Below are positions 8,812 to 29,923 of a stretch of 64,000 nt of DNA, in pieces. The notes beneath the pieces were generated by a model. The model did not search any database and was not told the DNA's origin. It saw nothing but the letters and a program-made list of their open reading frames with translations. The stretch is from contig CAZCJL010000020.1 of the NCBI GenBank assembly GCA_964498785.1, positions 4,946-68,945 on the forward strand, given 5' to 3'. The stretch is from an uncultured Cytophagia bacterium. GTDB lineage: Bacteria > Zhuqueibacterota > Zhuqueibacteria > Thermofontimicrobiales > Thiofontviventaceae. Made by a program: the position numbers and the translations under genes. Within the stretch, counting starts at the first letter, position 1; every line of letters begins with the position of its first letter.

Positions 8812-8826
8812 TTAAAAGGAAATAAT

Positions 8827-14668: not shown

Positions 14669-15243
14669 ATGAAATTGAAATAATCAAACATTTTTATCTC
14701 GGAAATGGAACCGGCCTCGCCTTGCAGATTGGTCACCGGAAAATTAATGAACTAAATTTCTATACAGCCGAAAATCAATATAATAATTTTCTTAAAAATA
14801 CTTTAACTAAAAGTGATTTATATAAATTAATCTATGAAGATTCAAAAAATATTACATTTTCCTATGAAAACAATTTAGTTTATTTTTCTGAACACCCCTA
14901 TCCCCTGCTCGGTTTAGTTAAAAAAACTGAGTGGAATTTCGGATGTTTGGATATTAAAGATATTGCCTGCATGTGTCTTTTTAATATTGTAAGCAGGGGT
15001 TTTATTACCGATTTTATTGACTTGTACTATATTATTTTCAAAAAATACAGTCTTGATCAGATCATTTCTTTTTTTGAAGATAAATATCGTTCCATTTCTT
15101 ATGAAAATCAACTCATTTTGAAAAGCTTAGTCTATTTTGATGAGGCAAATATTCAATCGCGACCAGATATGCTGGTTGATATGAATTGGGGGAAAATTAA
15201 AAATTATTTTACGAAATATGTTAAAGTAATGAATAAACTATAG
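14617..15243 (+). CDS. DUF1814/AbiEii-like nucleotidyltransferase-fold protein (putative type IV TA toxin / Abi-like), possibly with a degenerate active site
   Basis: 208 aa. N-terminal FYLGNGTGLALQIGHRKINELNFY resembles the LKGGTAL…R.SEDLDF motif of DUF1814, with Glu/Asn in place of the two Asp. C-terminal CLFNIVSRGFITDFIDLYYIIFKKYSLDQIISFFEDKY matches the conserved K..AL..R..RDLYDLYYL region of that family. Confidence 0.4.
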   Translation: METNILTETQKSFFSKLNEIEIIKHFYLGNGTGLALQIGHRKINELNFYTAENQYNNFLKNTLTKSDLYKLIYEDSKNITFSYENNLVYFSEHPYPLLGLVKKTEWNFGCLDIKDIACMCLFNIVSRGFITDFIDLYYIIFKKYSLDQIISFFEDKYRSISYENQLILKSLVYFDEANIQSRPDMLVDMNWGKIKNYFTKYVKVMNKL

Positions 15244-15251: not shown

Positions 15252-16094
15252 ATGCGAAATCCAAGAGACCTATCAAAGGTAGGCAAAACTGGAGCCTATG
15301 TCGTTTTGACTATTTTTACATTGTTTGCCATTTACCCGATTTTACGGGTAATTAGTATTTCCTTGCGACCGGGTGATCGACTGTTGAGCAAATCACTGGC
15401 AATTATTCCGGATGGAGCTTCATTAACGAACTACTATAATCTAATTTTTAATCAGCCATTTTTAAGTTGGATGTGGAACAGCATCATTGTCTCAGCAATC
15501 GTAACATTTGTCGGCGTGGGGTTGGCAGCAAGCGCAGGATATTCTTTTTCCCGCTATAAATTTATCGGGCGAAACTCTGCAATGTTTGGATTAATCGCAA
15601 CACAAATGTTTCCGGCAACAATGTTACTTCTTCCATTATTCATTACTCTTATTAAATTAAAGTTATATGATTCATATTTAAGCTTGATCGTTGCATACTC
15701 CGCAACTGCATTGCCTTTTACAACATGGCAAATGAAGGGTTATTATGATACTATCCCGTTTAGCATCGAAGAAGCAGCAAGCATCGATGGTTCTTCTCAA
15801 TTTGGAACTTTTTGGAGAATCGTGCTGCCATTGGCATCTCCGGCATTGGTTATTACTGCGCTGTTTTCGTTTATGACAGCCTGGTCTGAATATCTGGTTG
15901 CAGCCGTCCTAATCCAGGATCAAAGTTTATTTACACTGCCATTAGGTTTAAAAATGTTTCAATCAGCGATGGAAACATCTTGGGGGCTTTATTCGGCTGG
16001 TGCAGTCCTTGTAAGCATTCCGATTGTGACGCTATTTCTTTATCTGAGTCAATGGCTAATTTCCGGATTAACGCTTGGCAGTGTAAAAGGATAA
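15252..16094 (+). CDS. Sugar ABC transporter permease (MalG/UgpE-like)
   Basis: 280 aa, 6 TM. EEAASIDGSSQFGTFWRIVLPLASPAL is the EAA signature. Partner of the permease at 13437..14363. Confidence 0.8.
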   Translation: MRNPRDLSKVGKTGAYVVLTIFTLFAIYPILRVISISLRPGDRLLSKSLAIIPDGASLTNYYNLIFNQPFLSWMWNSIIVSAIVTFVGVGLAASAGYSFSRYKFIGRNSAMFGLIATQMFPATMLLLPLFITLIKLKLYDSYLSLIVAYSATALPFTTWQMKGYYDTIPFSIEEAASIDGSSQFGTFWRIVLPLASPALVITALFSFMTAWSEYLVAAVLIQDQSLFTLPLGLKMFQSAMETSWGLYSAGAVLVSIPIVTLFLYLSQWLISGLTLGSVKG

Positions 16095-17199: not shown

Positions 17200-17706
17200 A
17201 TGATCGATTCTCAAAAATTAACAAAATCAGAATTACACGATCTTTTAGTCGATGCAGCAAAAAACTGGCTGGCACACGATGGTTTATGGTTTCTTGCCGC
17301 GGAAGAAAAATACGGAATGCCGGCTGCAATTGAACTTGACCGTGAAGCATGGCGAAAATTCACTGTGGTGGAAGCAAAACGAATCATGAAGCGTTTGGGA
17401 ATGGAACCTGGCGGAGGAATTCCGGCGTTAATAACAGCGCTGGATTATCGCCTTTATGCCTATATTAACATACAATCGGTTGAAGCTGTCAGCGCTAATC
17501 GGTGTATTTTTAAAATGAATAATTGCCGCGTACAAGCCGCCAGAAAAATGAAGAACCTCCCTGATTTTCCCTGCAAATCAGTTGGAATTGTTGAATATCG
17601 ATATTTTGCCCAAACAATAGATCCACAAATTAAAACAAAATGCCTTACCTGTCCCCCGGATGACCATCCTGATGATTATTACTGTGCATGGGAATTTACA
17701 ATCTGA
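17200..17706 (+). CDS. Conserved hypothetical protein (DGLWF motif, Cys-rich C-terminus)
   Basis: 168 aa. WLAHDGLWFLAAEEKYG and C-terminal CLTCPPDDHPDDYYCAWEF. Possibly a DUF-type small cytosolic protein. The 3' end overlaps the convergent aminotransferase remnant by 28 nt. Confidence 0.45.
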   Translation: MIDSQKLTKSELHDLLVDAAKNWLAHDGLWFLAAEEKYGMPAAIELDREAWRKFTVVEAKRIMKRLGMEPGGGIPALITALDYRLYAYINIQSVEAVSANRCIFKMNNCRVQAARKMKNLPDFPCKSVGIVEYRYFAQTIDPQIKTKCLTCPPDDHPDDYYCAWEFTI

Positions 17707-18401
17707 TTATGAATATTTTTCAAATTATCAAAATGCTTTTGATTTACATAAAGAAAACCTGTTCCCATTGGCCCAACTAACCATTTCATGCCACCGGCAC
17801 AATAAAAATCGATACTGTATTTGTTAAGCTGTGCCGGGATGGCGCCAACAGCCTGAATACCATCAACGATCAGATACAGACCATGTTCTTTTGCAATATC
17901 TCCTAATTTTGGAAGATTAAGACGGTAGCCGGACAAAAAATGGACATGATCCACAACAATTGCACGAGTATGACTATCAATATTTTCAATTAGCCTCCTA
18001 TAAAAGTTAACCCCGTTGTTTAGCGGAACATATTTTTTTTTCGCAACATCAAAAATATGATGCAGGATATACAAGCTCGCCGGAAATGCGTCGGCTTGTA
18101 CAATTATATTGTCCCCTGCTTTTAAGTCTATCGAGTGCAATGCAATTGATAACCCCTCGGTTGTATTATGAATGAATGCAATTTCATCAGAGTCAGCAGT
18201 AACCATTTGGGCCATTGCTGCCCGGAAGTCATTTAATTTGCTCATTATTTCCTCAATACGGGGCTCACCTGTTTCTACTAATTGATCAATTAACGACTTC
18301 ATGGCTTCTGTGCATTGTAACGGCATCATACCAACAGCAGCATGATTTAAATACGTCTGATTTGATTTATCATTAAAATATTTCCGGAATTTCTTATCCA
18401 T
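17679..18401 (-). pseudogene. Class V aminotransferase (cysteine desulfurase/SufS-like) N-terminal and large-domain fragment lacking the C-terminal small domain
   Basis: 240 aa. YLNHAAVGMMP near the N-terminus, HNTTEGLS, YLIVDGIQAVGAIP and the PLP-lysine region FYCAGGMKWLVGPMGTGFLY are all class V hallmarks. The ORF ends ~30 residues after the PLP Lys, whereas the family is ~380-400 aa. No downstream continuation in any minus frame; the + strand gene occupies the space. Confidence 0.45.
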
Positions 18402-18516
18402 CTTATCTCCTATGATTTAAATTACTTAATAACATACTTATTTTCAAATAAATAGTCAAGTATTATTATAATATAAAAGCACGATCTCTTATTCTTTGAT
18501 AAATATAAAAATACAG

Positions 18517-18545
18517 TTGAAATTTATTAAAAAATTAGTTATATT
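18517..18545 (+). promoter_or_regulatory. Candidate sigma70-type promoter (TTGAAA-N17-TATATT) for the 18745-28296 cluster
   Basis: TTGAAA at 18517-18522, a 17-nt spacer and TATATT at 18540-18545, ~200 nt upstream of the Omp85-like gene. Confidence 0.3.
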
Positions 18546-18744
18546 CAGGGAATTCAGTTATTCGGAGTTAACTATAAAATTATATTTTATCTTAAATAAC
18601 GTACGTTCGAACTAGGCAATTTAAAGCAATTTTAGCCCCGGATTGACACTGATAAATACAGATTCTTTTTAATTTTCAAACGAAATTCGTGTTCAATCCA
18701 GGCGGATCAGTGGCAAATAATAATTTTAAAGGATTATAAAACGA

Positions 18745-20076
18745 ATGAACCGCTTACTCTCACAACGAGATATTTATATTTTATTTTTAATACTAATCCT
18801 CTTTTCTCAGAGATCCGTATTCGCTCAACAAGCTGAAAATGATTCCAGCCGAAATTATTTACAAAATATGAATCCTAAAATTCATCCATTACGTAATCAC
18901 CAAAAAGATCGTCCAGCTTTTGAAAAAGCGATGCGAGTACCAATAAATATCGTTGAATTTCCGTTTTGGGTTATGGGAAGAGGTTTGGAAAATTCACTTC
19001 AATATATTGAACATAATAAAATTTTTGAAAAATTTGAATTTATCGAAGATTGGCTTGAAAAGCATCATATTCTCTTCGAAGATGGATCTCAGGGTATTGG
19101 ATCTGGATTAGGCCCTGCTGTTGGTTTGTTCACCCATAGTGGGGATTTAAAATTAGCGGTTTCATCGGCGTTGACCACCTGGGGCTATCAAGGGCACAAA
19201 ATCTGGTTTGAATTACCGGAGCTTAATTGCCAAACTCGGTTAGATGGTTGGATAAAATTTCAAAATCGGACCCGGGATAATTTTTTCGGTATCGGGTCAG
19301 ATTCTAAGAATGATGACCGAACGCAATTTCAACAATCGAACGTTAACGGAGGCATTGAATTTTCGTATGCTACAAAAAAATTAAATTTAACTGCATCCAC
19401 AGACTTCACAAAATATAATGAAATTAACGATCCTTTCTGGTCTGGCAGTAAGTCAACAAAGGAAAGATTCAGCGAACTTCCGGGTATTGATGGCGCAGAA
19501 TTGGTTCGCGTGGGCTTACGGCTAACTCACCCGGAAGTCTTGTATAAAGGTTTACCAGGCGTTGAAATCGCTGTTGATTTTTCTGCCGATTATTTTTGGC
19601 AATTGGATTATGACAACAATCGTTTTGATAGATATACGCTTATTTTATATCAAAGCATCCCGCTGTTTCATGGGGATAGACTTTTCGCGATTCGATGTGG
19701 CGGCTCTATGACCAATACAAAAGGAAATTTGACTATTCCTTTTTATGCACTCAATAATTTTGGCGGATGGAATTCGCTGCGCGGGTATGAGAGTTTAAGA
19801 TTTAGAACCCTGGATTGGGTGCTTTTGAATCTGGAATATCGATATCCGATTATGGATATCGGTCTTGAAAATGGATTCGCAATTGATTTCCTCTATTTTT
19901 TTGACGCTGGCATTCCTTCAAATGAAATTGAAAATGATTTAAATATTAAAAATATTTTAAAAACTTACGGAGCAAGCATTCGCTTGCGAAAAAAACTCGG
20001 TGTCATTTTGCGGCTTAGTATTGCAAGAAGTTCAGAATCAACTTTAATCGGATTAAAAATTGGAAAGGATTTTTAG
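18745..20076 (+). CDS. Omp85/BamA-superfamily outer-membrane beta-barrel protein (no POTRA array evident)
   Basis: 443 aa with a signal peptide (…ILFSQRSVFAQQ). C-terminal region FLYFFDAGIPSNE…YGASIRLRKKLGVILRLSIARS…GLKIGKDF resembles the conserved Omp85 barrel C-terminus (FFDAGN…GLGLR…) and ends in an aromatic residue (F). Confidence 0.6.
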   Translation: MNRLLSQRDIYILFLILILFSQRSVFAQQAENDSSRNYLQNMNPKIHPLRNHQKDRPAFEKAMRVPINIVEFPFWVMGRGLENSLQYIEHNKIFEKFEFIEDWLEKHHILFEDGSQGIGSGLGPAVGLFTHSGDLKLAVSSALTTWGYQGHKIWFELPELNCQTRLDGWIKFQNRTRDNFFGIGSDSKNDDRTQFQQSNVNGGIEFSYATKKLNLTASTDFTKYNEINDPFWSGSKSTKERFSELPGIDGAELVRVGLRLTHPEVLYKGLPGVEIAVDFSADYFWQLDYDNNRFDRYTLILYQSIPLFHGDRLFAIRCGGSMTNTKGNLTIPFYALNNFGGWNSLRGYESLRFRTLDWVLLNLEYRYPIMDIGLENGFAIDFLYFFDAGIPSNEIENDLNIKNILKTYGASIRLRKKLGVILRLSIARSSESTLIGLKIGKDF

Positions 20077-20077
20077 A

Positions 20078-21796
20078 ATGAAGTGGTACTTTCCGTTGTT
20101 AATGATATTCGTTTTCTTTTACATTGTCAGTTGTGCCGGCCCATCAAGAGATTTAATCGTTGCCGGAAAATTAGATGATCTGCATGATCGAGAACCGATT
20201 CCGGAACCTGAATTGAGATCACCAAATCAATACTATGATTTTATTGATCGTGCAATATTTAAGCAAGTCCATTCCATATTTGACCTGCCGCGGCACGTGC
20301 GAGCAATTACTGCGCAGCCAAAACAGGCAATTAATGTTGATGCGTTTGATGAAGTTCCAAATTCAACATGGTTTACTAACCGTGCGTATCGAATTACTTA
20401 TAAAGAAGCGCTTAATGGCCCGAACGAGTTTGATGGCCCGGATATGTCTGCGCCATGGATTGTAAAAGGTGTAAAAACACAAGGTATTACACCTGGATTT
20501 CGTATTAAGGATCGTCAAGGAGATATCTACTTGTTAAAATTTGATCCGATTAGCAATCCGGAATTAGCCACTGGCGCTGAAATAATTTCGACGAAACTTT
20601 GTTGGGCAATCGGCTACAATACGCCTGAAAATTACCTGGTATTTTTTAAACCAGAGCAGCTCCTTATTAAAGGAGAGGTAAAACTTGTTGATGAGTTTGG
20701 TTATGATCGAATCTTGAAACCAGAGGACGTGACCCAAATTTTGACTTTTGTTCCCAAATTATCCGACGGTCGGATCAGGGCGGTTGCAAGCAGATTTTTG
20801 CCAGGAAAGCCAATTGGACCTTATTCATATTTCGGCACCCGGCCGGATGATAGCAACGACGTATTTCGCCATGAACATCGACGTGATTTACGCGGACTTT
20901 ACGTATTTGTGTCATTAATCAACCATAATGATATTCGTCGTATTAATTCATTGGACATGTATTGTTCGGAGGGATATATCAAGCATTACTTGATCGATTT
21001 TGGCTCAACTTTAGGAAGTGGTGCGACATCTGAGAATTTGCGAAGCGAAGGCTTTCAATATCAATTGGATTATGGTGAAATTGCAAAAGCCTTTTGCAGT
21101 TTCGGAATGTATACTTTTCCCTGGCAACGCATGAATCTGGAGTCCGGTTTTGAATCAATCGGGTATTTTAGCGGAAAATACGTAAATCCTGGCAAATGGA
21201 AACCGAACTATCCAAATCTTGCGTTTCAACGGTTAACAAACAGAGATGGTTACTGGGGCGCAAAAATTGTTATGAGTCTCACTGATGAGATAATCACGGG
21301 TATCGTTAAACAGGCACAATATTCTGATAAGGATGCTGAAAAATACATGACCAATACTCTCATTCAAAGAAAAAATACGATTGGTAAATATTGGTATCAA
21401 CAGGTGAGTCCACTCGATTGGTTCAAAATTTCAAATTTAACTAATGAAAATGGCCAGTTTTTTTCGTTTACTGATCTGGCAATTTATGAAAAATTCGAGA
21501 ATCAGGAAAATACCCGCTATAAAATTGAACTTAAATATAACAAGGCAACTGGTAGCGATCCATCAATTTTTGATGAAACAGTGATAAACACAGGCAAATT
21601 TCTAATTAGCCCTGAGATCGTTAAAATGGCTGATAAATTATGCATAAACAAGAAAAATCCGAATGAGCGTTTATTTTACATTCAAATTTTAACACAACGT
21701 AAAAATAAACCTGACTGGAAAAAAATCGTTAAAGTCCATTTACTTTTTGAGGACATCGATAGCGGTTTTAAAATAGCCGGAATTGAACGAAAATAA
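20078..21796 (+). CDS. Lipoprotein with protein-kinase-like (PKL) fold motifs
   Basis: Start at the ATG at 20078, directly after the upstream stop. Signal plus lipobox (MKWYFPLLMIFVFFYIVSCAG). Candidate motifs are beta3-Lys DIYLLKFDP, alphaC-Glu PELATGAEIIS, catalytic-loop HxDxxxxN in LINHNDIRRINSL, and the DFG metal-binding motif in YLIDFGSTLGSG. Confidence 0.55.
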   Translation: MKWYFPLLMIFVFFYIVSCAGPSRDLIVAGKLDDLHDREPIPEPELRSPNQYYDFIDRAIFKQVHSIFDLPRHVRAITAQPKQAINVDAFDEVPNSTWFTNRAYRITYKEALNGPNEFDGPDMSAPWIVKGVKTQGITPGFRIKDRQGDIYLLKFDPISNPELATGAEIISTKLCWAIGYNTPENYLVFFKPEQLLIKGEVKLVDEFGYDRILKPEDVTQILTFVPKLSDGRIRAVASRFLPGKPIGPYSYFGTRPDDSNDVFRHEHRRDLRGLYVFVSLINHNDIRRINSLDMYCSEGYIKHYLIDFGSTLGSGATSENLRSEGFQYQLDYGEIAKAFCSFGMYTFPWQRMNLESGFESIGYFSGKYVNPGKWKPNYPNLAFQRLTNRDGYWGAKIVMSLTDEIITGIVKQAQYSDKDAEKYMTNTLIQRKNTIGKYWYQQVSPLDWFKISNLTNENGQFFSFTDLAIYEKFENQENTRYKIELKYNKATGSDPSIFDETVINTGKFLISPEIVKMADKLCINKKNPNERLFYIQILTQRKNKPDWKKIVKVHLLFEDIDSGFKIAGIERK

Positions 21797-21824
21797 TCCG
21801 GTAAAATATGAAAGCGAGTACAAT

Positions 21825-23051
21825 TTGCATCACTTTATTAATAAATTTATAATAAAAATTGGCTTGATTTTGATAGTGATCTTTTATTCCTGTGCAAATA
21901 AAGGACTTGTGAGCGAGACATATAACAAAGACTATTATCAAATTACAAAACTGCTTCCGGAAAATAAAATCGAACAATCCGCTGTAAATTTTTTAATTTA
22001 TAGCGATAATCAGGCTGGATGGCGGATACAGCACAAATTTTTGGACAAATCACGATGGACAAGCCCTAAAATGCTACTGTTTCCATTTTATGAGATTTAC
22101 CTGTTAACAAATGGAGTTATCGGCGGTATTAATGGTCTTCGACATGTCCCTGATTATGGTAAAAATGAACGATTAATGATGCGGGATGTTATTTATTCAA
22201 CTGCACAAAAAATGGATGCTGCATTTATTTTAAACATCGGCGATATTAATGCTTACGATGGCAGACGCCCCGATCATTGGGAAACTTTCTTAAAAGAAAA
22301 CAAGCAAAACCATAATTTATTAAATGAAATTCCCTATTTACCGGTTATCGGAAATCATGAATATGCGAATGATCCCCACTATGGTTATCCGAATTATAAA
22401 GCAATTTTTGGTTATCCACGATTTTATGTAATCGAATTTCCGCAGGCAGCTATTTATGTTGTTGATTCGAATTATATACTCGATCAAAATCAATTCATTG
22501 AGAATAGCGTTCAGGACCAGTTGTTTACAAAGTGGTTTGTGCGGGATAATTTTACTGATACCCTCGCCTGGCTGGAAAAAAAGTTAATTGAATATGATAA
22601 GCCATTGACGATCGTGGCAATGCATCATCCATTGGTTACTTTTGGGAAGCATTATCAGGATTGGCACAATCCTGGGTTTGGGAATGCATTAATTGAGAAA
22701 CGAAACAAACTGATCGATCTTTTTCATAAATATGATGTGGATGTTGTTTTCTCAGGACATGAGCATTCTTATCAACATAATACGTCTACGTCCGAGGGCA
22801 GTAAAATACATTTTCTGGTTGGCGGAGGAGGCGGTACTCCGTTAAGAAATCCGCCAGATGAAGAAACTCAATTTAATATTTTAAATGAATACAAACAAGA
22901 GGGTCATGATGTACAAAATATTTCACTGGCGAAAATTTATCATTATTATACAATTAATATTGAAAATAATGAAATGACAATCAAAGTCATGAAAGTTAGC
23001 AAAAATATTGAACTCCCGATAGAGAAAATAAAAATAGTTGCTCCCAAATAA
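21825..23051 (+). CDS. Exported calcineurin-like metallophosphoesterase (purple-acid-phosphatase-like)
   Basis: Motifs GDINAYDG (GDxxY), VIGNHEY (GNHE), MHHP and FSGHEHSYQH (GHEH) give the complete metallophosphatase signature set. The tracked ORF starts at TTG 21783. An in-frame TTG at 21825 yields a clean lipoprotein-type signal (MHHFINKFIIKIGLILIVIFYSC). Confidence 0.7.
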   Translation: MHHFINKFIIKIGLILIVIFYSCANKGLVSETYNKDYYQITKLLPENKIEQSAVNFLIYSDNQAGWRIQHKFLDKSRWTSPKMLLFPFYEIYLLTNGVIGGINGLRHVPDYGKNERLMMRDVIYSTAQKMDAAFILNIGDINAYDGRRPDHWETFLKENKQNHNLLNEIPYLPVIGNHEYANDPHYGYPNYKAIFGYPRFYVIEFPQAAIYVVDSNYILDQNQFIENSVQDQLFTKWFVRDNFTDTLAWLEKKLIEYDKPLTIVAMHHPLVTFGKHYQDWHNPGFGNALIEKRNKLIDLFHKYDVDVVFSGHEHSYQHNTSTSEGSKIHFLVGGGGGTPLRNPPDEETQFNILNEYKQEGHDVQNISLAKIYHYYTINIENNEMTIKVMKVSKNIELPIEKIKIVAPK

Positions 23052-23087
23052 ATTTCTAATAATCGGATAATTACGTTAGGAGTTTTT

Positions 23088-24422
23088 ATGACCGGTCAAT
23101 TAAAAACAATAATGAACATCCGGCGGGATGAACTACCGTTTTCATTGTTCATGTTTACCTATTTTTTTCTAATCATTACAAACTTCTGGATTTTAAAGCC
23201 CTTAAAAAAAGGCTTATTTATCGGTTTTTATAAAGTGCGGGAAGGAGTAGATCTGTTCTCGTGGCATTTATTGGGTTCGCAAGCAGAACTTCTTGCAAAA
23301 GTATTGAATATGGTTGTCGCATTTTTCGCAGTTATTGTATTTACGTGGCTTGCCAGAAAATTCAGGCGACAACAACTTACATATATTTTTTCTGTATTTA
23401 TCGCATTCTGTCTGATTATATTTTCATTTGTAATCAATAAACCCAATGATTTAACCGTCTGGTTATTTTACTTGTTTGGCGACCTCTTTAACACATTAAT
23501 GGTCGCCACATTTTTTTCATTTCTAAATGATAGTGTAAATACTGATTCTGCCAAACGACTTTACGGTTTAGTTGTGCTCGGCGGTGTAACAGGAGGTGTT
23601 TTCGGAACTCAATTTGTGCGCATCTGGATTGATGACATGACAATGATTTCATGGCTCTGGATTTCCCTTTTTATTACCATCCTTATTGCGTTGATAGCGG
23701 GACTTGCCGGACGTATGGTTAAAGAAAATAACTTTGACGAGATTAAAAGCAAACCAACAATCAATGATAAAACAATAAAAACAAACGCTGCTATCGAAGG
23801 TGCCAAATTAGTTTTTAAATCAAAATACTTACTTGCTATTGTTGGTATTGTTGGATTTTATGAAATCCTTTCAACAGTCATGGATTTCCAATTTTCCGCG
23901 ACTATCGAACATTATCTTCATACGGAAGAAGCAATTGGCAAACAATTCGCAACAGTATTTTCGATTACGAACATCGTTGCACTGGTCGTCCAGCTCTTTC
24001 TGACAAGTTTTATTATGACAAAGTTTGGACTGACAGTTGCATTACTGATTTTACCATGCGCAATTATGTTTGGTTCGTTTACATTTTTAGCTTTTCCAAT
24101 TTTATGGGTTGGAAGTTTTCTGAATACGGCAGATAATGGTTTTAGCTATTCAATAAACCAATCAGCTAAAGAAGCGCTTTATGTTCCGACAAGCAGAGAC
24201 GAAAAATACAAAGCCAAAGCCTTTATCGATATGTTTGTGCAACGATTTGCCAAAGCATTAGCTGTTGGTATTAGCTTATTGATTACCACCATTTTTCGTG
24301 ATTTCTCCAGTATACGATGGCTATCCTTAATAACAATCATTGTTGTTGTTATTTGGATTCTTGTAGTTAGATTTGCTGGTAATAAATTTAACGAGTTGGC
24401 TCCTTCAAAGAAGAATGACTAA
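23088..24422 (+). CDS. TLC-family (ATP/ADP translocase-like, Npt-type) nucleotide transporter homolog
   Basis: 444 aa, ~12 TM. N-terminal ELPFSLFMFTYFFLIITNFWILKPLKKGLFIG resembles the TLC N-terminal signature (L.LMFFLI.FNY.ILR.LKD.L). DSAKRLYGLVVLGGVTGGVFG resembles the TLC AKRFYPLFG.GAN motif. Confidence 0.6.
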   Translation: MTGQLKTIMNIRRDELPFSLFMFTYFFLIITNFWILKPLKKGLFIGFYKVREGVDLFSWHLLGSQAELLAKVLNMVVAFFAVIVFTWLARKFRRQQLTYIFSVFIAFCLIIFSFVINKPNDLTVWLFYLFGDLFNTLMVATFFSFLNDSVNTDSAKRLYGLVVLGGVTGGVFGTQFVRIWIDDMTMISWLWISLFITILIALIAGLAGRMVKENNFDEIKSKPTINDKTIKTNAAIEGAKLVFKSKYLLAIVGIVGFYEILSTVMDFQFSATIEHYLHTEEAIGKQFATVFSITNIVALVVQLFLTSFIMTKFGLTVALLILPCAIMFGSFTFLAFPILWVGSFLNTADNGFSYSINQSAKEALYVPTSRDEKYKAKAFIDMFVQRFAKALAVGISLLITTIFRDFSSIRWLSLITIIVVVIWILVVRFAGNKFNELAPSKKND

Positions 24423-27225
24423 ATTAATTCGAAAAATACTGAATATAAATGAAGGTGAAGGATTAAAAGTATTTTTGATGTTTAGCTATATTTTTTTAGC
24501 TATCGCATCTCTTTTAATCGTTAAACCAGTTCGTAATTCTCTTTTTCTGAGCCATTTTGGTGTTGAAAAACTGCCGTACGCTTTTATTTCAGTTGCAGTA
24601 AGTGCAGCTATTTTTACAAATTTCTATTCCAGATATGCAAAGAAAATCCGCTTAAATATATTAATTTTCTATACAACCGTCTCATCCATTTGCTTTTTAA
24701 TTGTATTTTGGATTTTAATATTTTTAAATAGTAACGAAGGTTGGTTTTATTATTTTGTATATGCATGGGTTGCCCTTTTCGGTGTAATCACCACCTCACA
24801 ATTCTGGTTATTAGCAAATTATGTGTTCAATGCTCGTCAGGCAAAAAGATTATTCGGATTGATAGGAGCAGGTGCTATTTCGGGCGGAATCTTTGGCGGT
24901 TACCTGACCAAATTTCTGGCTCCGATAGTTGGAACAGGGAATTTATTTTTCTTTTGCATTTTTTTCCTGCTTCTTTGCCTCGTGATTATGAAAAAAGTCT
25001 GGAAACAAGGCGCCAGACAAACATATTCTGAGCGAATTCAGCAGGAAAAACGTATCCGAAAAAAATTAACTACCGACAAACCATTTGAATTGCTACAAAA
25101 ATCGAAGCATCTTTCGTATATCGCTGCTATCGTTAGCGTAGGAGTAATTGTTGCAAATCTAGTAGATTATCAATTTAGCGCCATTGCAAGTAATATCATT
25201 AAAGACGAAGATAATTTAACTGCTTTCTTCGGATTCTGGCTTTCCAATTTAAGTATTGCTTCACTATTAATACAATTGTTATTAACCGGTCGTAGTCTTA
25301 AAATATTCGGAGTCACGACTTCTCTCTTCTTTCTGCCATTTGGTATTTTAATTGGCGCGTTGGGCATTCTTTTCGATCCCAGGTTATGGTCTGCTGTTTT
25401 TATTAAGGTTTGTGACGGTAGCTTTAAGCAATCCATTCATAAGGCTAGTCTTGAGTTATTAGCTCTCCCCCTTCCAACCTCCTTAAAAAATCAAGGCAAA
25501 GCGTTTATTGATGTTTTTATCGATAGCCTGGCGACAGGAATCGGTGGAATATTTTTAATTATTTTTACGCAACAGTTCGGATTTTCTGTGCAACAAATCA
25601 GTTTTGTTTTAATTATATTCATAATTATTTGGTTTTACTTAATTAAGTCGGTAAAACAGCAATATATCAACTCATTTCGAACAGCAATTGAAAAAAGGTC
25701 AATCGATCTGCAAGATCAATATCTTAATATTCAGGAAGCATCTGTATTAAATAACATTTTAAAAATCCTTGATAGCAAAAACGAGCGACAAATTCTCTAC
25801 ATTCTTCAATTAATTGAAAATGTTAAAAGTGAACGTCTCATCCCTTATTTTAAAAAATTGATCAAACACCGATCCCATGAAATCAAAATACAGACATTGC
25901 GAATGATGAGAAATTATGAACACATTGATTTTGTTGATGATGTACGAAAGCTGACACAGGATTCCAATTTCAATGTAAAAGTTGAGGCGATTCGTTCTAT
26001 TTACGCAAATTCCAAAAACCGAAATCACGATTTAGAAAAATTATTAGTTGATCAGGATATTTTCATTCGAAGTGCGGCCTTACTATCCTCAGCTTATGAA
26101 CACAGAGATAGTAAGGAATTTCGAAAATCATTTAATATTAAAAACTTATTTGATCAATTTGTTGATAAATTTAGTGAGAAAAGTTTTCATCAGGAAGAAA
26201 TTGACTTTATGAAGACTGTCCTTGCAAAGGTAATTGGAATTTCAAAAATGACTGAGCTTTATCCATTTCTAAAAAATTTATTATTCGATAAAAATATAGA
26301 TGTTGTGCAAGAAGCGACAATTAATGCTGGTTTAACCAGACACAAAATGTTCTTCGAGATTCTTATACAATATTTAAACAAACACACTGTCAGAAAATAC
26401 GCTCGTAACGCGCTGGCAGAATATGAGAATGATGTTATTAATCCCCTAAAAAATTTATTGGAAAATGAAAAAGAAGACTATCAGTTGCGCAACGCAATTC
26501 CCAAAGTTTTGGCATTAATTGGAACCCAAGAATCAGTTAATCTATTGTTAGATAACTTGCTTCAGGAAGATTTAGCATTACGGTTTCAAATACTTCGGGC
26601 ATTAAACAGGTTACGAACGAATTTTCCATACTTAAAATTTGGGGACAACCGAATCCGAAATAGTATTGTTTTTGAGAGCAAAAATTACCATAAAATTTAC
26701 TCTTATTTATCAAATAGTGAATTGCTTGATAGCTATAACATCCAACACATACCTGATCATAAAAAAGCAAAAAAATCTCTCGATTTATTATTAACCTTAT
26801 TAAATGAACGTCTTGATAATACTCTTGAAAGAATATTTCGTCTGCTTGGTTTAAAATATTCATCTGGCGATATGTATAACGCTTATAGAGCGATAACAAG
26901 CAATAGCCCGGATTTGCGAGCGAATGCTGTTGAATTTCTCGAAAATATTCTGGACCCGAATTTAAAACGGATTATAATTCCAATTATAGAATATTCAACC
27001 AGTGCTTTGCTATCTGAGGAATTTAACTTCTCCCGAAAAGATGGTATGTTCCTGGAGCTATTAAAAGAAAAGGATTCATGGCTAAAAGTATGTACTATTT
27101 TCTATATTGCCGAGACTAACATGAACCATTATCAATCTGAAATAAAAAAACTAACAATGGATCATGATTCCACTGTTAAAGAAACCGCTGAATACGCTCT
27201 TGATTTATTAATAAATAGAAAATGA
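24415..27225 (+). CDS. TLC-family transporter domain fused to a C-terminal cytoplasmic HEAT/PBS-lyase-type repeat domain
   Basis: Start at the ATG at 24415 (MTKLIRKILNI…). ATGACTAA gives an 8-nt overlap with the upstream stop, suggesting translational coupling. The first ~440 aa have 12 TM, with GLKVFLMFSYIFLAIASLLIVKPVRNSLFL and QAKRLFGLIGAGAISGGIFGG motifs. The last ~500 aa are soluble alpha-helical repeats (e.g. ERQILYILQLIENVKSERLIPYFKKLIKHRSHEIKIQTLRMM…NVKVEAIRSI). Confidence 0.6.
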   Translation: MTKLIRKILNINEGEGLKVFLMFSYIFLAIASLLIVKPVRNSLFLSHFGVEKLPYAFISVAVSAAIFTNFYSRYAKKIRLNILIFYTTVSSICFLIVFWILIFLNSNEGWFYYFVYAWVALFGVITTSQFWLLANYVFNARQAKRLFGLIGAGAISGGIFGGYLTKFLAPIVGTGNLFFFCIFFLLLCLVIMKKVWKQGARQTYSERIQQEKRIRKKLTTDKPFELLQKSKHLSYIAAIVSVGVIVANLVDYQFSAIASNIIKDEDNLTAFFGFWLSNLSIASLLIQLLLTGRSLKIFGVTTSLFFLPFGILIGALGILFDPRLWSAVFIKVCDGSFKQSIHKASLELLALPLPTSLKNQGKAFIDVFIDSLATGIGGIFLIIFTQQFGFSVQQISFVLIIFIIIWFYLIKSVKQQYINSFRTAIEKRSIDLQDQYLNIQEASVLNNILKILDSKNERQILYILQLIENVKSERLIPYFKKLIKHRSHEIKIQTLRMMRNYEHIDFVDDVRKLTQDSNFNVKVEAIRSIYANSKNRNHDLEKLLVDQDIFIRSAALLSSAYEHRDSKEFRKSFNIKNLFDQFVDKFSEKSFHQEEIDFMKTVLAKVIGISKMTELYPFLKNLLFDKNIDVVQEATINAGLTRHKMFFEILIQYLNKHTVRKYARNALAEYENDVINPLKNLLENEKEDYQLRNAIPKVLALIGTQESVNLLLDNLLQEDLALRFQILRALNRLRTNFPYLKFGDNRIRNSIVFESKNYHKIYSYLSNSELLDSYNIQHIPDHKKAKKSLDLLLTLLNERLDNTLERIFRLLGLKYSSGDMYNAYRAITSNSPDLRANAVEFLENILDPNLKRIIIPIIEYSTSALLSEEFNFSRKDGMFLELLKEKDSWLKVCTIFYIAETNMNHYQSEIKKLTMDHDSTVKETAEYALDLLINRK

Positions 27226-27250
27226 TATCATTTAATAGCAGGTTTTTATC

Positions 27251-27676
27251 ATGTTAACAATTGTTGAAAAAGTTTTATTTCTTCAGGATGTGGATATCTT
27301 TGAGAACACAACGACAGAGGATCTTTCCCATATTGCCGCAATTACAGATGAAATCAATTTTAAGGCAAATACTGATATATATCAGATTGGAGATGTGTCT
27401 GACTCAATGTATTTGGTTATTGAAGGTAAAGTGCGGCTACATCATAACGACCGACAGGTGATGATAGCCCAAATAAAAGATGTATTTGGTACATGGGCTC
27501 TTTTTGATGACGAACCCCGCGTGGTAACAGCTACAACACTGCAAGATTCGGTATTGCTCAAAATTAACCGGGAAGAATTTTACGATTTATTGGCTGATCA
27601 CTTACAAATAACATTAGGAATTTTGAAAACGCTATCGAAACGACTGCGTGGGCTGGTGAATAGTGTCCGAAAATAA
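27251..27676 (+). CDS. Cyclic-nucleotide-binding (cNMP/CAP-effector) domain protein, stand-alone
   Basis: 141 aa. FLQDVDIFENTTTEDLSHIA…IYQIGDVSDSMYLVIEGKVRL…RVVTATTLQDSVLLKINREEF follows the cNMP-binding beta-roll pattern. No DNA-binding HTH is present. Confidence 0.7.
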   Translation: MLTIVEKVLFLQDVDIFENTTTEDLSHIAAITDEINFKANTDIYQIGDVSDSMYLVIEGKVRLHHNDRQVMIAQIKDVFGTWALFDDEPRVVTATTLQDSVLLKINREEFYDLLADHLQITLGILKTLSKRLRGLVNSVRK

Positions 27677-27720
27677 CACAAATAGGTCGAAACGGAAAAG
27701 CAAATTTTTTAACTAGATGC

Positions 27721-27749
27721 TTGCAATTTACAATCGTTTTTATTATATT
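27721..27749 (+). promoter_or_regulatory. Candidate sigma70-type promoter (TTGCAA-N17-TATATT) upstream of the REC gene
   Basis: TTGCAA at 27721-27726, a 17-nt spacer and TATATT at 27744-27749, ~65 nt upstream of the ATG at 27814. Confidence 0.35.
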
Positions 27750-27813
27750 GACTAATATTTATTTCTGATCTTGATGATTTATTCTAATTCTTCAAAAAGG
27801 AGATAATTTTTGT

Positions 27814-28296
27814 ATGTCTGAACAGGAATACAATGCGACGATTGTTGTTGTAGATGATGAAGATATGGTTTTGACAAGTATCGGTTCATTCCTGACTCTT
27901 GAAACTGACTATAATGTAAAAACCTTTACCTCGGCAGACAAGGCGATTAAATACATCGAAAATAGTGAAATCGATCTTGTTATTTCAGATTATCTGATGC
28001 CAGAAATGGACGGAATAACCTTTCTTGCAAAAGTCAGAACGATTAAACCGAATGTCCCCCGGATTATTTTAACTGGTTATGCTGATAAAGAAAATGCAAT
28101 CAAAGCCATTAATGAGGTTGGGCTTTTTCAATATATTGAAAAACCCTGGGAAAATGATGATTTGTTAATTATTATTCGAAACGGCCTTGAAAAGAAAATG
28201 CTAATGAATAAGCTTCAATTAAAAGTCGATGAAATAAATAAAGCTTATTCAGATTTACAAAATATACAGCAGGAAATTTTAAAAACATTTGTTTAA
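27814..28296 (+). CDS. Response regulator, receiver (REC) domain only (CheY-like) with a short C-terminal helix
   Basis: 160 aa. IVVVDDEDMVL (acidic pocket), DLVISDYLMPEMDG (phospho-acceptor Asp), ILTGYAD and conserved Lys in EKPW. No output domain. Confidence 0.75.
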   Translation: MSEQEYNATIVVVDDEDMVLTSIGSFLTLETDYNVKTFTSADKAIKYIENSEIDLVISDYLMPEMDGITFLAKVRTIKPNVPRIILTGYADKENAIKAINEVGLFQYIEKPWENDDLLIIIRNGLEKKMLMNKLQLKVDEINKAYSDLQNIQQEILKTFV

Positions 28297-28320
28297 TACA
28301 TATTCGAGTTTAGAAATAAA

Positions 28321-28359
28321 AATCCCATATCATTTCTATTAATGATATGGGATTTTTTT
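28321..28359. terminator. Bidirectional rho-independent terminator between convergent REC gene and nuoN
   Basis: Perfect 13-bp stem AATCCCATATCAT / ATGATATGGGATT with loop TTCTATTA. Flanked by an A-tract upstream and TTTTTT downstream. Confidence 0.6.
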
Positions 28360-28375
28360 AATTAATTAAATATTT

Positions 28376-29923
28376 TTAGAATAGCATTTTCGCCCATTCA
28401 AGCGCCCAGTTCATTAAGCGCGCGGGTAAAATTCCGAGAACTAAAATAAACAGAGTCGATAATCCGAGTGTTATCCAAACCGGAAACAAACTTTTTTTAT
28501 CAATGTCTGGGATTTTATTATCAGGTTCTTTCATATACATAACGATGATAATATTGATGTAAAAGTAAAGCGCTACCATGCTAAATAATAGCGCAACAAC
28601 TGCGGTTACATAGAATTCGCCATTAATTAATTGTAAGAAAATTTGGATTTTTCCCACGAATCCAACCGCTGGCGGTATTCCGCCAAGAGAGAACATAGCG
28701 ACAGACATCATTGCAGCGGCTCCGGGGTATTTTCTGGCGATGCCAGCGAGATCATCCACTGTTTCACAATAGTGCTCTCGATGTGTCAAAAAAACAAGCA
28801 CACCAAAAGCCAGCATATTCATCGCGATATAGCCAATACCGTAAAATAAAACCGCCTGAATTGCTTCAATATTATGCGCCATTGGCGCCAGAGCTAACGC
28901 CATGTATCCTGCATGAGCAATAGATGAATACGCTAACATCCGTTTAACATTTCGTTGTACAATGGCGACAGAATTTCCATAAATGATTGTTAATAGCGCA
29001 AAGAAAGCAAATATTTTTGAAAATAACGGATCAAATGCCGGCAATACAATCGATCCGGCAAAGATTTTTAAAATTACGGCAAAGGCAGCTAATTTGACGG
29101 CAACTGACATAAAAGAAGTAACAGGAGTTGCTGCGCCCTCATATACATCGGGCGTCCAGGCATGGAATGGTACCAGCGATACTTTAAATGCCAATCCCAC
29201 AAAAATAAAAATTAACCCCAGCCCCATTATCATTGATTCAGCAGATGAAGTTTGCGCTACTTGCGCTAATTGAGTGAGAACGTCATTAATAACTAAAGTG
29301 CCTGTCATTCCGTAAATGAATGAAATTCCTAACAGCAGGAATGCGGATGAAAAGCCTCCTAACAGCAGGTATTTTATTGCAGACTCTCCGACTTTTGAAT
29401 TATAGCGTTTCAGGCCGACTAGTGCGTAAATAGGAATGGACATCATTTCCAGGGACAGGAAAATCATTAAGAAATTTTCAGCCGCGATTAAAGTGAGAGC
29501 GCCGAGTAACGAAAAACAGAGTAGCAGGTAATAATCATTTGCCGGAATTGATTGTGATAACGTGTATCTGGCTGATAATAAAATTGTCAAAATTCCGGCT
29601 CCGAGAATAGCCAATTTTCCAATATATATCCCGCCACCTGCACGAAGCGAATCATTTAACAGAATTACATTTGCATCTGAAGTTGATTTTCCGAAATAGA
29701 GATAAATCGCGGCAACAATCAACAATCCTATCCCTGCAATCCATGTCGATTGTCTGTTACGAGATTCGATATCTGCTGTTATTTCTTGTGTACTACTTAG
29801 CATTGTAAAAATTGGTTTACGGAAAGCATCAACCAACGTAAGAATGACAATTAAGGCAACTAAACTTAATTCTCCGACTAAAAAAATTGGTTCAAATCCT
29901 ATTTGATTCATATCCAAATCCAA
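28376..29923 (-). CDS. nuoN: NADH-quinone oxidoreductase subunit N
   Basis: 515 aa, ~14 TM, antiporter-like subunit. Last gene of the co-directional nuo operon. Confidence 0.8.
   Translation of the reverse strand: MDLDMNQIGFEPIFLVGELSLVALIVILTLVDAFRKPIFTMLSSTQEITADIESRNRQSTWIAGIGLLIVAAIYLYFGKSTSDANVILLNDSLRAGGGIYIGKLAILGAGILTILLSARYTLSQSIPANDYYLLLCFSLLGALTLIAAENFLMIFLSLEMMSIPIYALVGLKRYNSKVGESAIKYLLLGGFSSAFLLLGISFIYGMTGTLVINDVLTQLAQVAQTSSAESMIMGLGLIFIFVGLAFKVSLVPFHAWTPDVYEGAATPVTSFMSVAVKLAAFAVILKIFAGSIVLPAFDPLFSKIFAFFALLTIIYGNSVAIVQRNVKRMLAYSSIAHAGYMALALAPMAHNIEAIQAVLFYGIGYIAMNMLAFGVLVFLTHREHYCETVDDLAGIARKYPGAAAMMSVAMFSLGGIPPAVGFVGKIQIFLQLINGEFYVTAVVALLFSMVALYFYINIIIVMYMKEPDNKIPDIDKKSLFPVWITLGLSTLFILVLGILPARLMNWALEWAKMLF

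Follow-up and report, generated by a model that had tools for sequence, protein, structure and literature searches.

Seven co-directional genes encoding a predicted envelope phosphorylation module with NTT-type carriers in an uncultured Cytophagia bacterium

A cluster of seven plus-strand genes was found in a 64,000-nucleotide stretch of DNA (the window) from an uncultured Cytophagia bacterium, and it is best explained as one operon whose seven products would form a module for phosphorylation in the envelope. In the reading that we prefer tentatively, at a probability of about 45%, two carriers would supply periplasmic ATP to a kinase/phosphatase cycle and would be gated from the cytoplasmic side by a HEAT domain, a cNBD protein and a REC protein. 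NTTs catalyse ATP/ADP(+Pi) exchange, and by analogy the TLC carriers would move adenine nucleotide, most likely ATP out against ADP (and Pi) in. The kinase lipoprotein and its Omp85 partner would sit together at the outer membrane, where the kinase would use the exported ATP on an envelope target, for which protein, lipid and glycan are candidates; the phosphatase lipoprotein would take the phosphate off, regenerating ADP and Pi, the NTT counter-substrates.

Organisation of the cluster

The genes extend over 18745-28296, with the ORF coordinates given in an earlier sequence-only reading of this DNA, and are listed here with their flanking features.

18402-18744, plus strand: upstream intergenic region, 343 nt, AT-rich, likely the promoter region of the cluster; a minus-strand aminotransferase fragment diverges from it
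18745-20076, plus strand: Omp85 barrel gene, 443 aa
20078-21796, plus strand: kinase-fold lipoprotein gene, 572 aa
21825-23051, plus strand: metallophosphoesterase gene, TTG start at 21825 (408 aa from there), alternative TTG at 21783
23088-24422, plus strand: TLC1 carrier gene, 444 aa
24415-27225, plus strand: TLC2-HEAT gene, TLC/NTT-type carrier (about 1-440) plus HEAT repeats
27251-27676, plus strand: cNBD protein gene, 141 aa
27814-28296, plus strand: REC-only gene, 160 aa
28318-28359, no strand assigned: terminator hairpin, perfect 17-bp stem between an A tract and a T tract

Eight genes had been counted in the sequence-only reading; the ORF calls give seven, and the only further plus-strand ORF of at least 80 aa in the interval (24741-25031, 96 aa) is nested in the TLC2 gene. 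The tight or overlapping same-strand packing described there was borne out by direct reading of the junctions: the Omp85 stop at 20076 is followed by the kinase ATG at 20078 and the kinase stop at 21796 by the phosphatase TTG at 21825, a gap of 36 nt lies ahead of TLC1 at 23088, and the TLC1 stop and TLC2 start overlap in ATGACTAA (24415-24422). The gaps ahead of the cNBD gene (27251) and the REC gene (27814) are 25 nt and 137 nt long.

Two promoter-like hexamer pairs were found in the upstream region (18443-18472 and 18517-18545, each 10/12), but such matches occur at chance density for the region and are only suggestive. Another promoter-like site, at 27721-27749, lies inside the 137-nt gap, and REC may be expressed separately from it. 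The hairpin at 28318-28359 sits where REC and nuoN converge, within the 79 nt that separate them; with an MFE of -22.5 kcal/mol (z -5.9), equalled by 0 of 200 shuffles, it is a bidirectional intrinsic terminator ending the unit. The intergenic gaps within the cluster folded no better than shuffles, and no internal terminator, named earlier as a sign of unrelated transcription units, was found in them. Tight or overlapping gaps, no internal hairpins and a strong end hairpin together indicate that the seven genes form one predicted transcription unit.

Predicted gene products

Domain calls are Pfam matches above the gathering score, and NCBIfam was searched as well. At that threshold Pfam returned Omp85, Metallophos, TLC twice, HEAT_2, cNMP_binding and Response_reg, the families already assigned by the sequence-only reading, and the export signals expected of the Omp85 protein, the kinase lipoprotein and the phosphatase were present as a signal peptide or a conserved lipobox Cys.

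The Omp85 protein begins with a type I signal peptide, and residues 276-419 match PF01103 (29 bits, cutoff 24); its score of 65 bits against NF047779 Omp85_fam lies under the cutoff of that model. Neither a POTRA domain nor DUF5982 was found in it by Pfam search, and the lid-lock motifs SLRGYE and FFDAG, as defined in PMC11358297, were seen in its translation. We predict an outer-membrane barrel of the Omp85 superfamily, resembling in its lid-lock motifs and lack of POTRA the 'noNterm' proteins (Heinz & Lithgow 2014, PMC4104836) and the Leptospira paralogues (PMC11358297), which belong to a recognised class of POTRA-less barrels with uncharacterised function. It differs from 'noNterm' systems in having no DUF5982 match and in that its pairing with a kinase gene is kept across phyla. 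Leptospira group 4 also has a lipoprotein gene directly 3' of Omp85, for which a lipoprotein-handling role has been discussed (PMC11358297); that lipoprotein is adhesin-like, whereas a kinase-fold enzyme is found here. Zixibacteria loci repeatedly carry a PAP2-family gene next to Omp85; the window cluster has none.

The next gene encodes a lipoprotein (lipobox IVS-C19) in which an atypical protein-kinase-like domain (about 125-445) precedes an FN3/Ig-like beta-sandwich at the C terminus (about 445-572). It gave no Pfam or NCBIfam match, and its large family has no Pfam model, the members listed being 'hypothetical protein' or unnamed. Conservation of the lipobox Cys reaches at least 90% across the family; among 40 divergent homologues the phosphotransfer Lys, catalytic Asp/Asn and metal-binding Asp are invariant, and conservation of the αC Glu is likewise 90% or more. 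Although sequence profiles were silent, structure confirmed the kinase likeness suspected earlier, with CtkA as the best match and Fam20 as the second; this exported protein has an intact Fam20/PI4KII/CtkA-like kinase domain.

The phosphatase (PF00149, E 9.6e-13) has purple/tartrate-resistant acid phosphatases as its closest solved structures (1war, 2bq8; E 2.6e-7) and carries the motifs SDNQAG, GDINAYDG, GNHEY, MHHP and GHEHSY. Since the lipobox Cys is present in it and in 11 of the 11 orthologue ORFs listed, it is predicted to be a purple-acid-phosphatase-like metallophosphoesterase lipoprotein.

TLC1 matches PF03219 (E 4.3e-21) and MFS_1 (E 1.1e-9) and the AtNTT1 structure 9j3j (E 5.7e-12, residues 125-439), has the motif KE..Y.P...K.K.KA.ID in common with AtNTT1, and has orthologues 55-68% identical across phyla. 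TLC2-HEAT matches PF03219 (E 1.9e-16) and HEAT_2 (E 1.4e-14); its C-terminal HEAT-repeat part of about 500 aa would be cytoplasmic, given MFS topology. Both are predicted inner-membrane carriers of the TLC/NTT (ATP/ADP-translocase-like) branch of MFS, in one Pfam family (PF03219) with the plastid, chlamydial and rickettsial NTT ATP/ADP antiporters (TC 2.A.12; 9j3j, 9j3n), and the similarity to AtNTT1 includes the KE..Y.P and K.K.KA.ID motifs. Unlike those, they come from free-living environmental hosts, have a proposed net direction outward and fall under the NCBIfam NTP/NDP-exchanger threshold; with TIGR00769 scores of 65.9 bits for TLC1 and 42 bits for TLC2-HEAT, far under the cutoff of 387, and with characterised relatives that also carry NAD or SAM, ATP as substrate is unproven.

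The cNBD protein (PF00027, E 1.1e-17) has no signal peptide and, like the REC protein, is a small cytoplasmic protein of signalling type. Its phosphate-binding cassette, FGTWALF..EPRVVTA against the canonical GE...R[ST]A, is conserved in this non-canonical form in 20 orthologues. The cNMP_binding domain is present as first proposed, but with this pocket gating by a cyclic-nucleotide ligand is uncertain. The REC protein (PF00072, E 2.7e-27) ends in a short helical tail. Twenty orthologues, 68-76% identical across phyla, retain its DDE pocket, acceptor Asp (ISDYLMPEMDG), LTGY and KPW.

Neighbourhoods and partner replacement

In 62 of 71 loci the gene immediately 5' of the kinase gene is that of Omp85. 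Downstream of the kinase gene, 22 of 59 loci have a TLC gene on the same strand within 3.5 kb; counting any position within ±10 kb, 37 of 79 loci have one, in several phyla. Among the partners the phosphatase is conserved least (10 of 59 kinase loci). The full seven-gene order was also found in the loci L008 and L023 (both Zixibacteria), L009/L107 (Ignavibacteria-labelled), L090 and L092. Gene order, the check proposed with the original observation, thus recurs in other phyla, and the arrangement is more than chance.

In the reverse count, an exported kinase-fold gene adjoins the TLC1 orthologue in 31 of the 46 loci having at least 1.2 kb of upstream sequence. The adjoining gene is K3 in 28 TLC1-orthologue loci, mostly from related Desulfobacterota and on metagenome contigs that are non-independent samples. 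Profiles detect no similarity between the window kinase and K3, a lipoprotein of about 350 aa whose structural matches have Fam20 on top; K15, a secreted relative, matches K3 by hhalign at 94-96% probability. A lipoprotein Y_phosphatase3 gene (E 1.9e-66) adjoins TLC1 in 14 TLC1-orthologue loci, 10 of them with K3, where the window and its relatives carry the purple-acid-phosphatase-like lipoprotein. The highly conserved TLC1 beside two exported kinase-fold families with no similarity detected in sequence, and beside two unrelated exported phosphatases, suggests a functional link, not an accident of position. Of the two functions first put forward, this comparison appears to favour ATP supply, and scavenging does not explain the pattern.

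Other observations count against ATP supply: a kinase gene is missing beside TLC1 in 15 of the 46 loci, K3 systems are without Omp85, the K3 model has pLDDT below 50 at residues 218-230 and 241-256 (the catalytic-loop region), the periplasm is regarded as ATP-free in the literature, and periplasmic ATP could leak through porins. Of 79 kinase loci, 42 are without a TLC gene inside 10 kb, some of them on complete MAG chromosomes (L001, L029, L056); with more than half of the loci in this state, carrier-kinase coupling is not obligatory.

Alternative explanations and known systems

An NTT-HEAT fusion with an adjacent cNBD gene, of unknown function, was reported in 2017 (Major, Embley & Williams, PMC5381601), and TLC2, with its C-terminal HEAT part and a cNBD gene 25 nt downstream, matches the operon described there. 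As far as it was read here, that paper does not mention a second plain NTT, REC, Omp85 or an exported kinase or phosphatase; the cassette here is embedded in a kinase/phosphatase cluster and recurs with it. The combination, once thought undescribed, is hence partly known, as are POTRA-less Omp85 barrels, and it is the link to exported kinases and phosphatases for which we found no description in the literature.

It is unlikely that the Omp85-lipoprotein pair is a separate outer-membrane module, for example for lipoprotein surface display or assembly, and NTT-HEAT/cNBD/REC with TLC1 a separate regulated transporter, sharing regulation or co-transfer alone with no nucleotide passing between them. 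This would fit the Omp85-kinase pair standing alone in most loci and the kinase alone in L001, the promoter-like site of REC, the identities of 55-76% for carrier, cNBD and REC against 23-52% for Omp85 and kinase, as in a separately evolving or mobile cassette, and NTT-HEAT plus cNBD without such a kinase in cyanobacteria and chlamydiae (PMC5381601). However, kinase and TLC genes less than 10 kb apart in 47% of loci, in several phyla, are in our judgement too frequent for coincidence; TLC1 orthologues have the replacement kinases and phosphatases beside them as well, and the TLC1/TLC2 start-stop overlap and close spacing suggest coupled expression.

Similarly improbable is a link other than exported ATP, in which the TLC proteins would move something else (NAD, SAM, a different nucleotide or some phosphorylated metabolite) or the lipoprotein would be a pseudokinase, a binder or an enzyme with another donor. 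The NTT family includes non-ATP carriers (references in PMC5381601), and the TLC proteins are far under the NTT equivalog threshold. LpxT also phosphorylates an envelope component, lipid A, on the periplasmic side, as proposed here, but is a PAP2 phosphotransferase using undecaprenyl-PP rather than ATP (PMC2229476), in contrast to a kinase-fold enzyme; the Zixibacteria PAP2 gene next to Omp85 would agree with such a donor. The invariant phosphotransfer residues and conserved αC Glu argue against a pseudokinase, however, and the recurrent phosphatase pairing fits a phosphate cycle. To our knowledge, all characterised NTT substrates are adenine-containing nucleotides or cofactors. In favour of this reading, kinase folds do other chemistry, as in SelO AMPylation and the Fam20A pseudokinase.

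Very improbable is a scavenging pipeline in which nucleotides from outside would pass the outer membrane, lose phosphate or other groups to the phosphoesterase and be taken up by the TLC carriers as in intracellular parasites: characterised Chlamydia, Rickettsia and Microsporidia NTTs do import nucleotides (PMC5381601) and the metallophosphoesterase faces the periplasm, but solute uptake is not a known role of Omp85 barrels (PMC4104836, PMC11358297), a conserved and apparently catalytically intact kinase would have no role, the phosphatase is the least conserved partner and gives way in K3 loci to a tyrosine-phosphatase-family enzyme, not a nucleotidase type, and these free-living lineages have carriers only remotely similar to the parasite importers.

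The proposed ATP supply has a parallel in Fam20C/Fam20B secretory phosphorylation, in that both exported bacterial kinase families have Fam20 structures among their best structural matches and the window phosphatase is closest to the TRAP/ACP5 type of eraser. In the eukaryotic secretory pathway these kinases rely on ATP imported into the lumen, and secreted TRAP/ACP5 acts as eraser; the shared logic is that kinases working outside the cytosol depend on a carrier for their nucleotide. The kinase lipoprotein, having no Pfam match, is not a Fam20 member by sequence; the setting is a bacterial periplasm or outer membrane, and the carrier belongs with the MFS-type NTTs rather than with the nucleotide-sugar-type SLC35 transporters. 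The secreted atypical kinases CtkA of H. pylori and CotH of the Bacillus spore coat obtain ATP from the host cell or mother-cell cytoplasm, whereas the lipoproteins here belong to free-living diderms and have a dedicated barrel and linked nucleotide carriers. The linkage across many phyla suggests that some free-living bacteria may feed ATP into the periplasm for envelope phosphorylation.

Layout and borders of the cluster

Between 18745 and 28296 the open reading frames resolve into seven plus-strand genes, rather than the eight counted in the sequence-only reading.

Genes of the cluster and their Pfam matches
18745-20076, + strand: Omp85-family barrel; PF01103, 29 bits (cutoff 24), residues 276-419
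20078-21796, + strand: lipoprotein of 572 aa with a predicted kinase fold
21825-23051, + strand: phosphoesterase lipoprotein; Metallophos PF00149, E 9.6e-13, 49.4 bits (cutoff 21.5)
23088-24422, + strand: TLC1, carrier of the ATP/ADP-translocase type (NTT/TLC); TLC PF03219, E 4.3e-21, 75.7 bits (cutoff 21)
24415-27225, + strand: TLC2, second such carrier; TLC PF03219, E 1.9e-16, 60.4 bits (cutoff 21); C-terminal part HEAT_2, E 1.4e-14, residues 650-730
27251-27676, + strand: cNBD protein; cNMP_binding PF00027, E 1.1e-17, 64.2 bits (cutoff 27.5)
27814-28296, + strand: REC protein; Response_reg PF00072, E 2.7e-27, 95.6 bits

Direct reading of the junctions reproduced the tight packing described earlier. 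The Omp85 gene stops at 20076 and the lipoprotein gene starts with ATG at 20078; the latter stops at 21796, followed by the phosphoesterase gene with a TTG start at 21825 and, after a gap of 36 nt, by TLC1 at 23088. The TLC1 stop and TLC2 start overlap (ATGACTAA, 24415-24422), and gaps of 25 nt and 137 nt precede the cNBD gene (27251) and the REC gene (27814), respectively. Strong internal terminators, the feature said to point to unrelated transcription units, were sought by consensus and by folding against shuffles, and none rose above chance: the intergenic gaps of the cluster fold no better than shuffled sequence, and consensus matches were at chance level (11 versus 8.0 ± 3.3). The genes are thus most simply read as one transcription unit, in which the REC gene may be served by a further promoter at 27721-27749.

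The cluster is cleanly delimited. At its 5′ border it is separated by a 343-nt AT-rich region from a divergent minus-strand aminotransferase fragment. This class-V aminotransferase ORF (17679-18401, -; 240 aa) appears truncated, matching positions 2-222 of the 371-position profile, and runs into the 3′ end of a convergent DUF6125 gene (17200-17706). The 3′ border is formed by a convergent nuo operon, and the convergent gap contains a perfect 17-bp hairpin (28318-28357) flanked by an A run and a T run (MFE -22.5 kcal/mol, z -5.9). The cumulative GC skew has its maximum at about 28000-28400, at this hairpin, where gene orientation turns from all plus to all minus; the peak could mark only the convergent operon junction or lie near a replication terminus.

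The flanks of the cluster carry genes for transport, amidase, nuo, sugar metabolism and 2-oxoacid dehydrogenase functions, and no cognate histidine kinase or nucleotide cyclase was found among the window ORFs scanned. The nearest relatives of the window's proteins are in Zixibacteria, Latescibacterota and Ignavibacteria-labelled MAGs. The only Rfam match in the window is a tRNA gene (1648-1720, +), upstream of which 57-1484 (+) encodes an HD-domain protein and a YmdB-like metallophosphoesterase. Six co-directional ORFs at 3834-9810 (+), of 336, 231, 481, 178, 417 and 327 aa, follow a TPR protein (2077-3465); they gave no Pfam match at E 1e-5 or better, nor did the three re-scanned at E 0.01. 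In the operon of a sugar-type ABC transporter (SBP 12212-13435, permeases 13437-14363 and 15252-16094), the two permease genes are separated by a DUF6922 gene (14363-14668, +) and, overlapping it, a 208-aa ORF without Pfam match (14617-15243), a pair that looks like a small inserted two-gene module. A 1109-aa protein (60121-63450, -) has an alpha-amylase catalytic domain and a weak match to a maltokinase N-terminal cap (E 4e-4, below the Pfam cutoff), which suggests a fusion of the trehalose-synthase/maltokinase type; the adjoining alpha-glucan genes encode a 4-alpha-glucanotransferase and a CBM48 amylase.

Identity of the encoded proteins

The families named in the sequence-only reading (Omp85, Metallophos, TLC twice, HEAT_2, cNMP_binding and Response_reg) were all recovered by Pfam above the gathering score. 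Its kinase-like lipoprotein was likewise borne out, by a predicted structure with a bilobal kinase fold and by conservation of the catalytic residues. At E 0.01 or better, neither Pfam nor NCBIfam matched the lipoprotein, the profiles of named kinase families (Pkinase, PI3_PI4_kinase, HipA_C, Fam20C, CotH and APH) included, and a sequence search of the PDB with the profile of its family returned chance-level matches only. Predicted structure and conserved motifs are the basis of the kinase assignment. The nearest folds (scores in brackets) included the protein kinases CtkA (14.3), Fam20C, CotH (12.1) and HipA (HipA-like, 11.8), the sugar kinase Fam20B, and the lipid kinases PI4K type IIα (12.8) and MavQ (10.5); Fam20 kinases scored 13.2, 13.0 and 12.4, and actin-fragmin kinase 11.6. 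The C-terminal part (about residues 445-572) matched FN3/Ig sandwiches.

Among 40 homologues with 39-59% identity, K154 (strand 150-155), H283-x-D285...N290 and D307-F308-G309 were invariant, and E168 (helix 163-177) and the lipobox Cys19 were at least 90% conserved. These correspond to the beta3 Lys, the alphaC Glu, the catalytic-loop Asp and Asn, and the metal-binding Asp of the DFG motif. Since the residues for phosphotransfer are conserved, the lipoprotein is taken as an exported and probably active enzyme of the kinase fold. It shares the fold of the Fam20/PI4KII/CtkA/HipA/CotH group, yet no sequence family described so far was found to include it. A word-indexed search found 2,963 members at E 0.001 or better among 8,000 scored candidates, and all 120 relatives listed were named only 'hypothetical protein'; clustering at 50% identity gave about 4,000 representatives of uniform length (about 550-600 aa).

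Both carriers are, by their profile matches, distant members of the NTT/TLC family (PF03219, TC 2.A.12). With TIGR00769, the model for NTP/NDP exchange transporters, TLC1 scored 65.9 bits and TLC2 41.9 bits, below the cutoff of 387. TLC1 aligns with the AtNTT1 structure 9j3j (E 5.7e-12) and has the signature motifs in common with it. TLC2 shows the pattern of NTT-HEAT/cNBD operons, with HEAT repeats at its C-terminus and a cNMP_binding gene 25 nt past its stop. By MFS topology, the HEAT domain would be cytoplasmic. No signal peptide is present in the cNBD or the REC protein, and both are thus taken as cytoplasmic. The phosphate-binding cassette of the cNBD protein reads FGTWALFDDEPRVVTA, a pattern conserved in 20 orthologues; compared with the canonical G-E ... 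R-[ST]-A, which would imply cAMP or cGMP as ligand, the Gly, Ala and Arg are kept, whereas the Glu and the Ser/Thr after the Arg are replaced. The REC protein keeps all phospho-acceptor residues (the DDE pocket, the acceptor Asp, the Thr of LTGY and the Lys of KPW) and has no output domain.

The phosphoesterase contains five metal-ligand motifs (SDNQAG, GDINAYDG, GNHEY, MHHP and GHEHSY), and its top PDB matches were all purple acid phosphatases (purple/tartrate-resistant; E 2.6e-7 to 1e-4). Its lipobox Cys is kept in the window protein and in 11 of 11 listed orthologue ORFs. An anti-phage defence system was considered and rejected: PADLOC gave only generic domain matches to the cNMP domain and REC and none for the other five proteins, and the NCBIfam anti-phage matches of the phosphoesterase (E ~1e-3, 18 bits versus cutoffs of 420-790) reflect generic Metallophos similarity.

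The NCBIfam Omp85_fam match of the Omp85 protein (65 bits) is under its cutoff of 200. About 250 residues precede the matched part of the barrel, and no POTRA family was found in the protein at E 0.01 or better; assignment to the BamA, TamA or TpsB type was rejected for this reason. Two-partner secretion (TpsB/TpsA) was also rejected, as Pfam found no POTRA_2 or TPS domain in either protein. The translation contains the lid-lock motifs, loop-6 SLRGYE and strand-13 FFDAG, defined as (L/M)RG(W/Y) and FxDxG (PMC11358297). Having these motifs and no recognised POTRA, the protein resembles in sequence the poorly understood 'noNterm' class. Barrels of the Omp85 type without POTRA were catalogued in 2014 (PMC4104836), and those of Leptospira, one group of which has a lipoprotein gene downstream, were studied in 2024 (PMC11358297).

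Linkage of exported kinases and carriers

Conservation of the neighbourhood was checked from the kinase side by scanning a genome collection and scoring the neighbours with the window's proteins. The 79 loci obtained came from Latescibacterota, Krumholzibacteria, Zixibacteria, Calditrichota, KSB1, Marinimicrobia, Ignavibacteria- and Cytophagia-labelled MAGs, Rhodothermales, Gemmatimonadota, Acidobacteriota and others, and the gene links of the cluster recurred in them across phyla. A same-strand Omp85 gene lay directly upstream of the kinase in 62 of 71 loci. A TLC gene was found on the same strand within 3.5 kb downstream in 22 of 59, and anywhere within ±10 kb in 37 of 79; this linkage is frequent, not universal, and metagenome contigs are non-independent samples. 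The phosphoesterase gene was present in 10 of 59 loci, and TLC, HEAT, cNBD and REC together in 8 of 50. All seven genes stand in the order of the window's cluster in L008 and L023 (Zixibacteria), L009/L107 (Ignavibacteria-labelled), L090 and L092, and L016, L054 and L091 have variants of that order without the phosphoesterase. Identity to the window proteins is 55-76% for the carriers, cNBD and REC, 35-52% for the kinase and 23-39% for Omp85.

The Omp85-kinase pair is tandemly duplicated in L004, L031, L065 and L152. A gene of the PAP2 family (lipid phosphate phosphatase/phosphotransferase) stands immediately upstream of the pair in the Zixibacteria loci L003 (7561-8469), L008, L013 and L079 and on the downstream side of the pair in L020 and L036, both Ignavibacteria-labelled; the window's cluster has no such gene.

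From the carrier side, metagenomes were scanned with TLC1; in the 80 loci obtained, TLC1 is 55-68% identical to that of the window. An exported kinase-fold gene adjoins TLC1 in 31 of the 46 loci that extend at least 1.2 kb upstream of it; the remaining 15 have no kinase neighbour. Kinases of the window's family occur in 15 of the 80 loci. There are two other exported kinase-fold groups: K3 in 28 of 80, nearly always directly upstream of TLC1, with many of these loci from related lineages, and K15, secreted, about 270 aa long and present in multiple copies, in 6 of 80. K3 proteins, lipoproteins about 350 aa long without Pfam match, come from Syntrophobacterales and other Desulfobacterota, and their systems lack Omp85. 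In 14 loci, of which 10 also have K3, TLC1 has next to it a gene for a Y_phosphatase3-family lipoprotein (E 1.9e-66), mostly downstream and on either strand.

Searches of solved structures with a single K3 protein and with the K3 profile gave chance-level matches only, the predicted K3 model is weak in the catalytic loop, and profile comparison of K3 with the window's lipoprotein family aligned only the signal peptides. The two are treated here as separate sequence families with the same predicted fold, homology not being proven. L139 carries three K3 genes in tandem, and L116, L121 and L126 each have three copies of K15. A fusion of about 730 aa, joining a sodium:dicarboxylate symporter to a periplasmic SBP_bac_3 domain, lies near the K3-TLC1 genes on Desulfobacterota contigs (L118, L124, L129, L139, L144, L146, L147, L158, L159 and L161); its recurrence may be lineage synteny only. 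De novo clustering of neighbour ORFs in the 79 and 80 loci gave mostly antisense ORF artefacts, and the only recurrent neighbours were PAP2, K3, K15, Y_phosphatase3 and this lineage-restricted transporter.

It is conceivable that the Omp85-kinase pair and the NTT cassette are mechanistically separate modules that have merely come to lie side by side, as many loci have the pair alone and cyanobacteria and chlamydiae have NTT-HEAT/cNBD operons without such kinases (PMC5381601). However, the linkage is seen from both sides and survives replacement of the partners, and we consider juxtaposition unlikely. The strongest argument for a functional link is that a conserved TLC1 is repeatedly tied to an exported kinase and phosphatase while the families of these change.

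Proposed function

In plastid NTTs, ADP and Pi serve as counter-substrates of exchange. In the most economical model, the carriers would deliver ATP to the periplasm, where the kinase lipoprotein would phosphorylate an envelope target and the phosphatase lipoprotein would reverse the modification; the resulting ADP and Pi would be the counter-substrates of NTT exchange, and HEAT, cNBD and REC would gate the ATP supply. Kinase and phosphatase are placed as lipoproteins and Omp85 as an outer-membrane barrel, with docking partner, surface-exposure device or target as its candidate roles. The PAP2 gene beside Omp85 in the Zixibacteria loci hints at lipid phosphate chemistry. We infer the function of the system from comparative genomics and predicted structure only, and tentatively propose, at a probability of about 0.4, that in free-living diderms of several phyla (FCB-group candidate phyla, Acidobacteriota and Desulfobacterota) NTT-type carriers provide a regulated supply of periplasmic ATP that powers Fam20/PI4KII-like kinase lipoproteins in reversible envelope phosphorylation.

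The carriers and the kinase-fold protein might instead be linked through another solute or a non-kinase role; the TLC proteins are remote from characterised NTTs, but the invariant catalytic residues weaken this reading, which seems improbable. Nucleotide scavenging is more doubtful still, as it leaves the kinase and its tyrosine-phosphatase-type partner without explanation.

The combination had been thought undescribed, and this holds in part. Fusions of the NTT-HEAT type next to a cNBD gene were already described in 2017, with no known function (PMC5381601), whereas full-text searches on periplasmic or extracytoplasmic kinases, periplasmic ATP and bacterial Fam20-like proteins turned up no exported kinase linked to nucleotide carriers. 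Statements that the periplasm is ATP-free are frequent in the papers these searches brought up, and it is generally treated so. The sole periplasmic phosphorylation found in the literature search was that of lipid A by LpxT, whose donor is the lipid-linked undecaprenyl-PP, not ATP (PMC2229476). Parts of the system-level arrangement are thus of known but uncharacterised kinds.

The closest functional analogy is phosphorylation in the eukaryotic secretory pathway, where Fam20 kinases act on imported ATP. If the ATP-supply reading is true, the system would be a bacterial counterpart of that process, an energy-dependent and regulated kinase/phosphatase cycle outside the bacterial cytoplasmic membrane. 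It would also say what NTTs do in free-living bacteria, a question that has stood since these carriers were reported to be widespread (PMC5381601), and would give a function to about 4,000 clusters of 'hypothetical' lipoproteins, to a second exported kinase family and to the POTRA-less Omp85 class.
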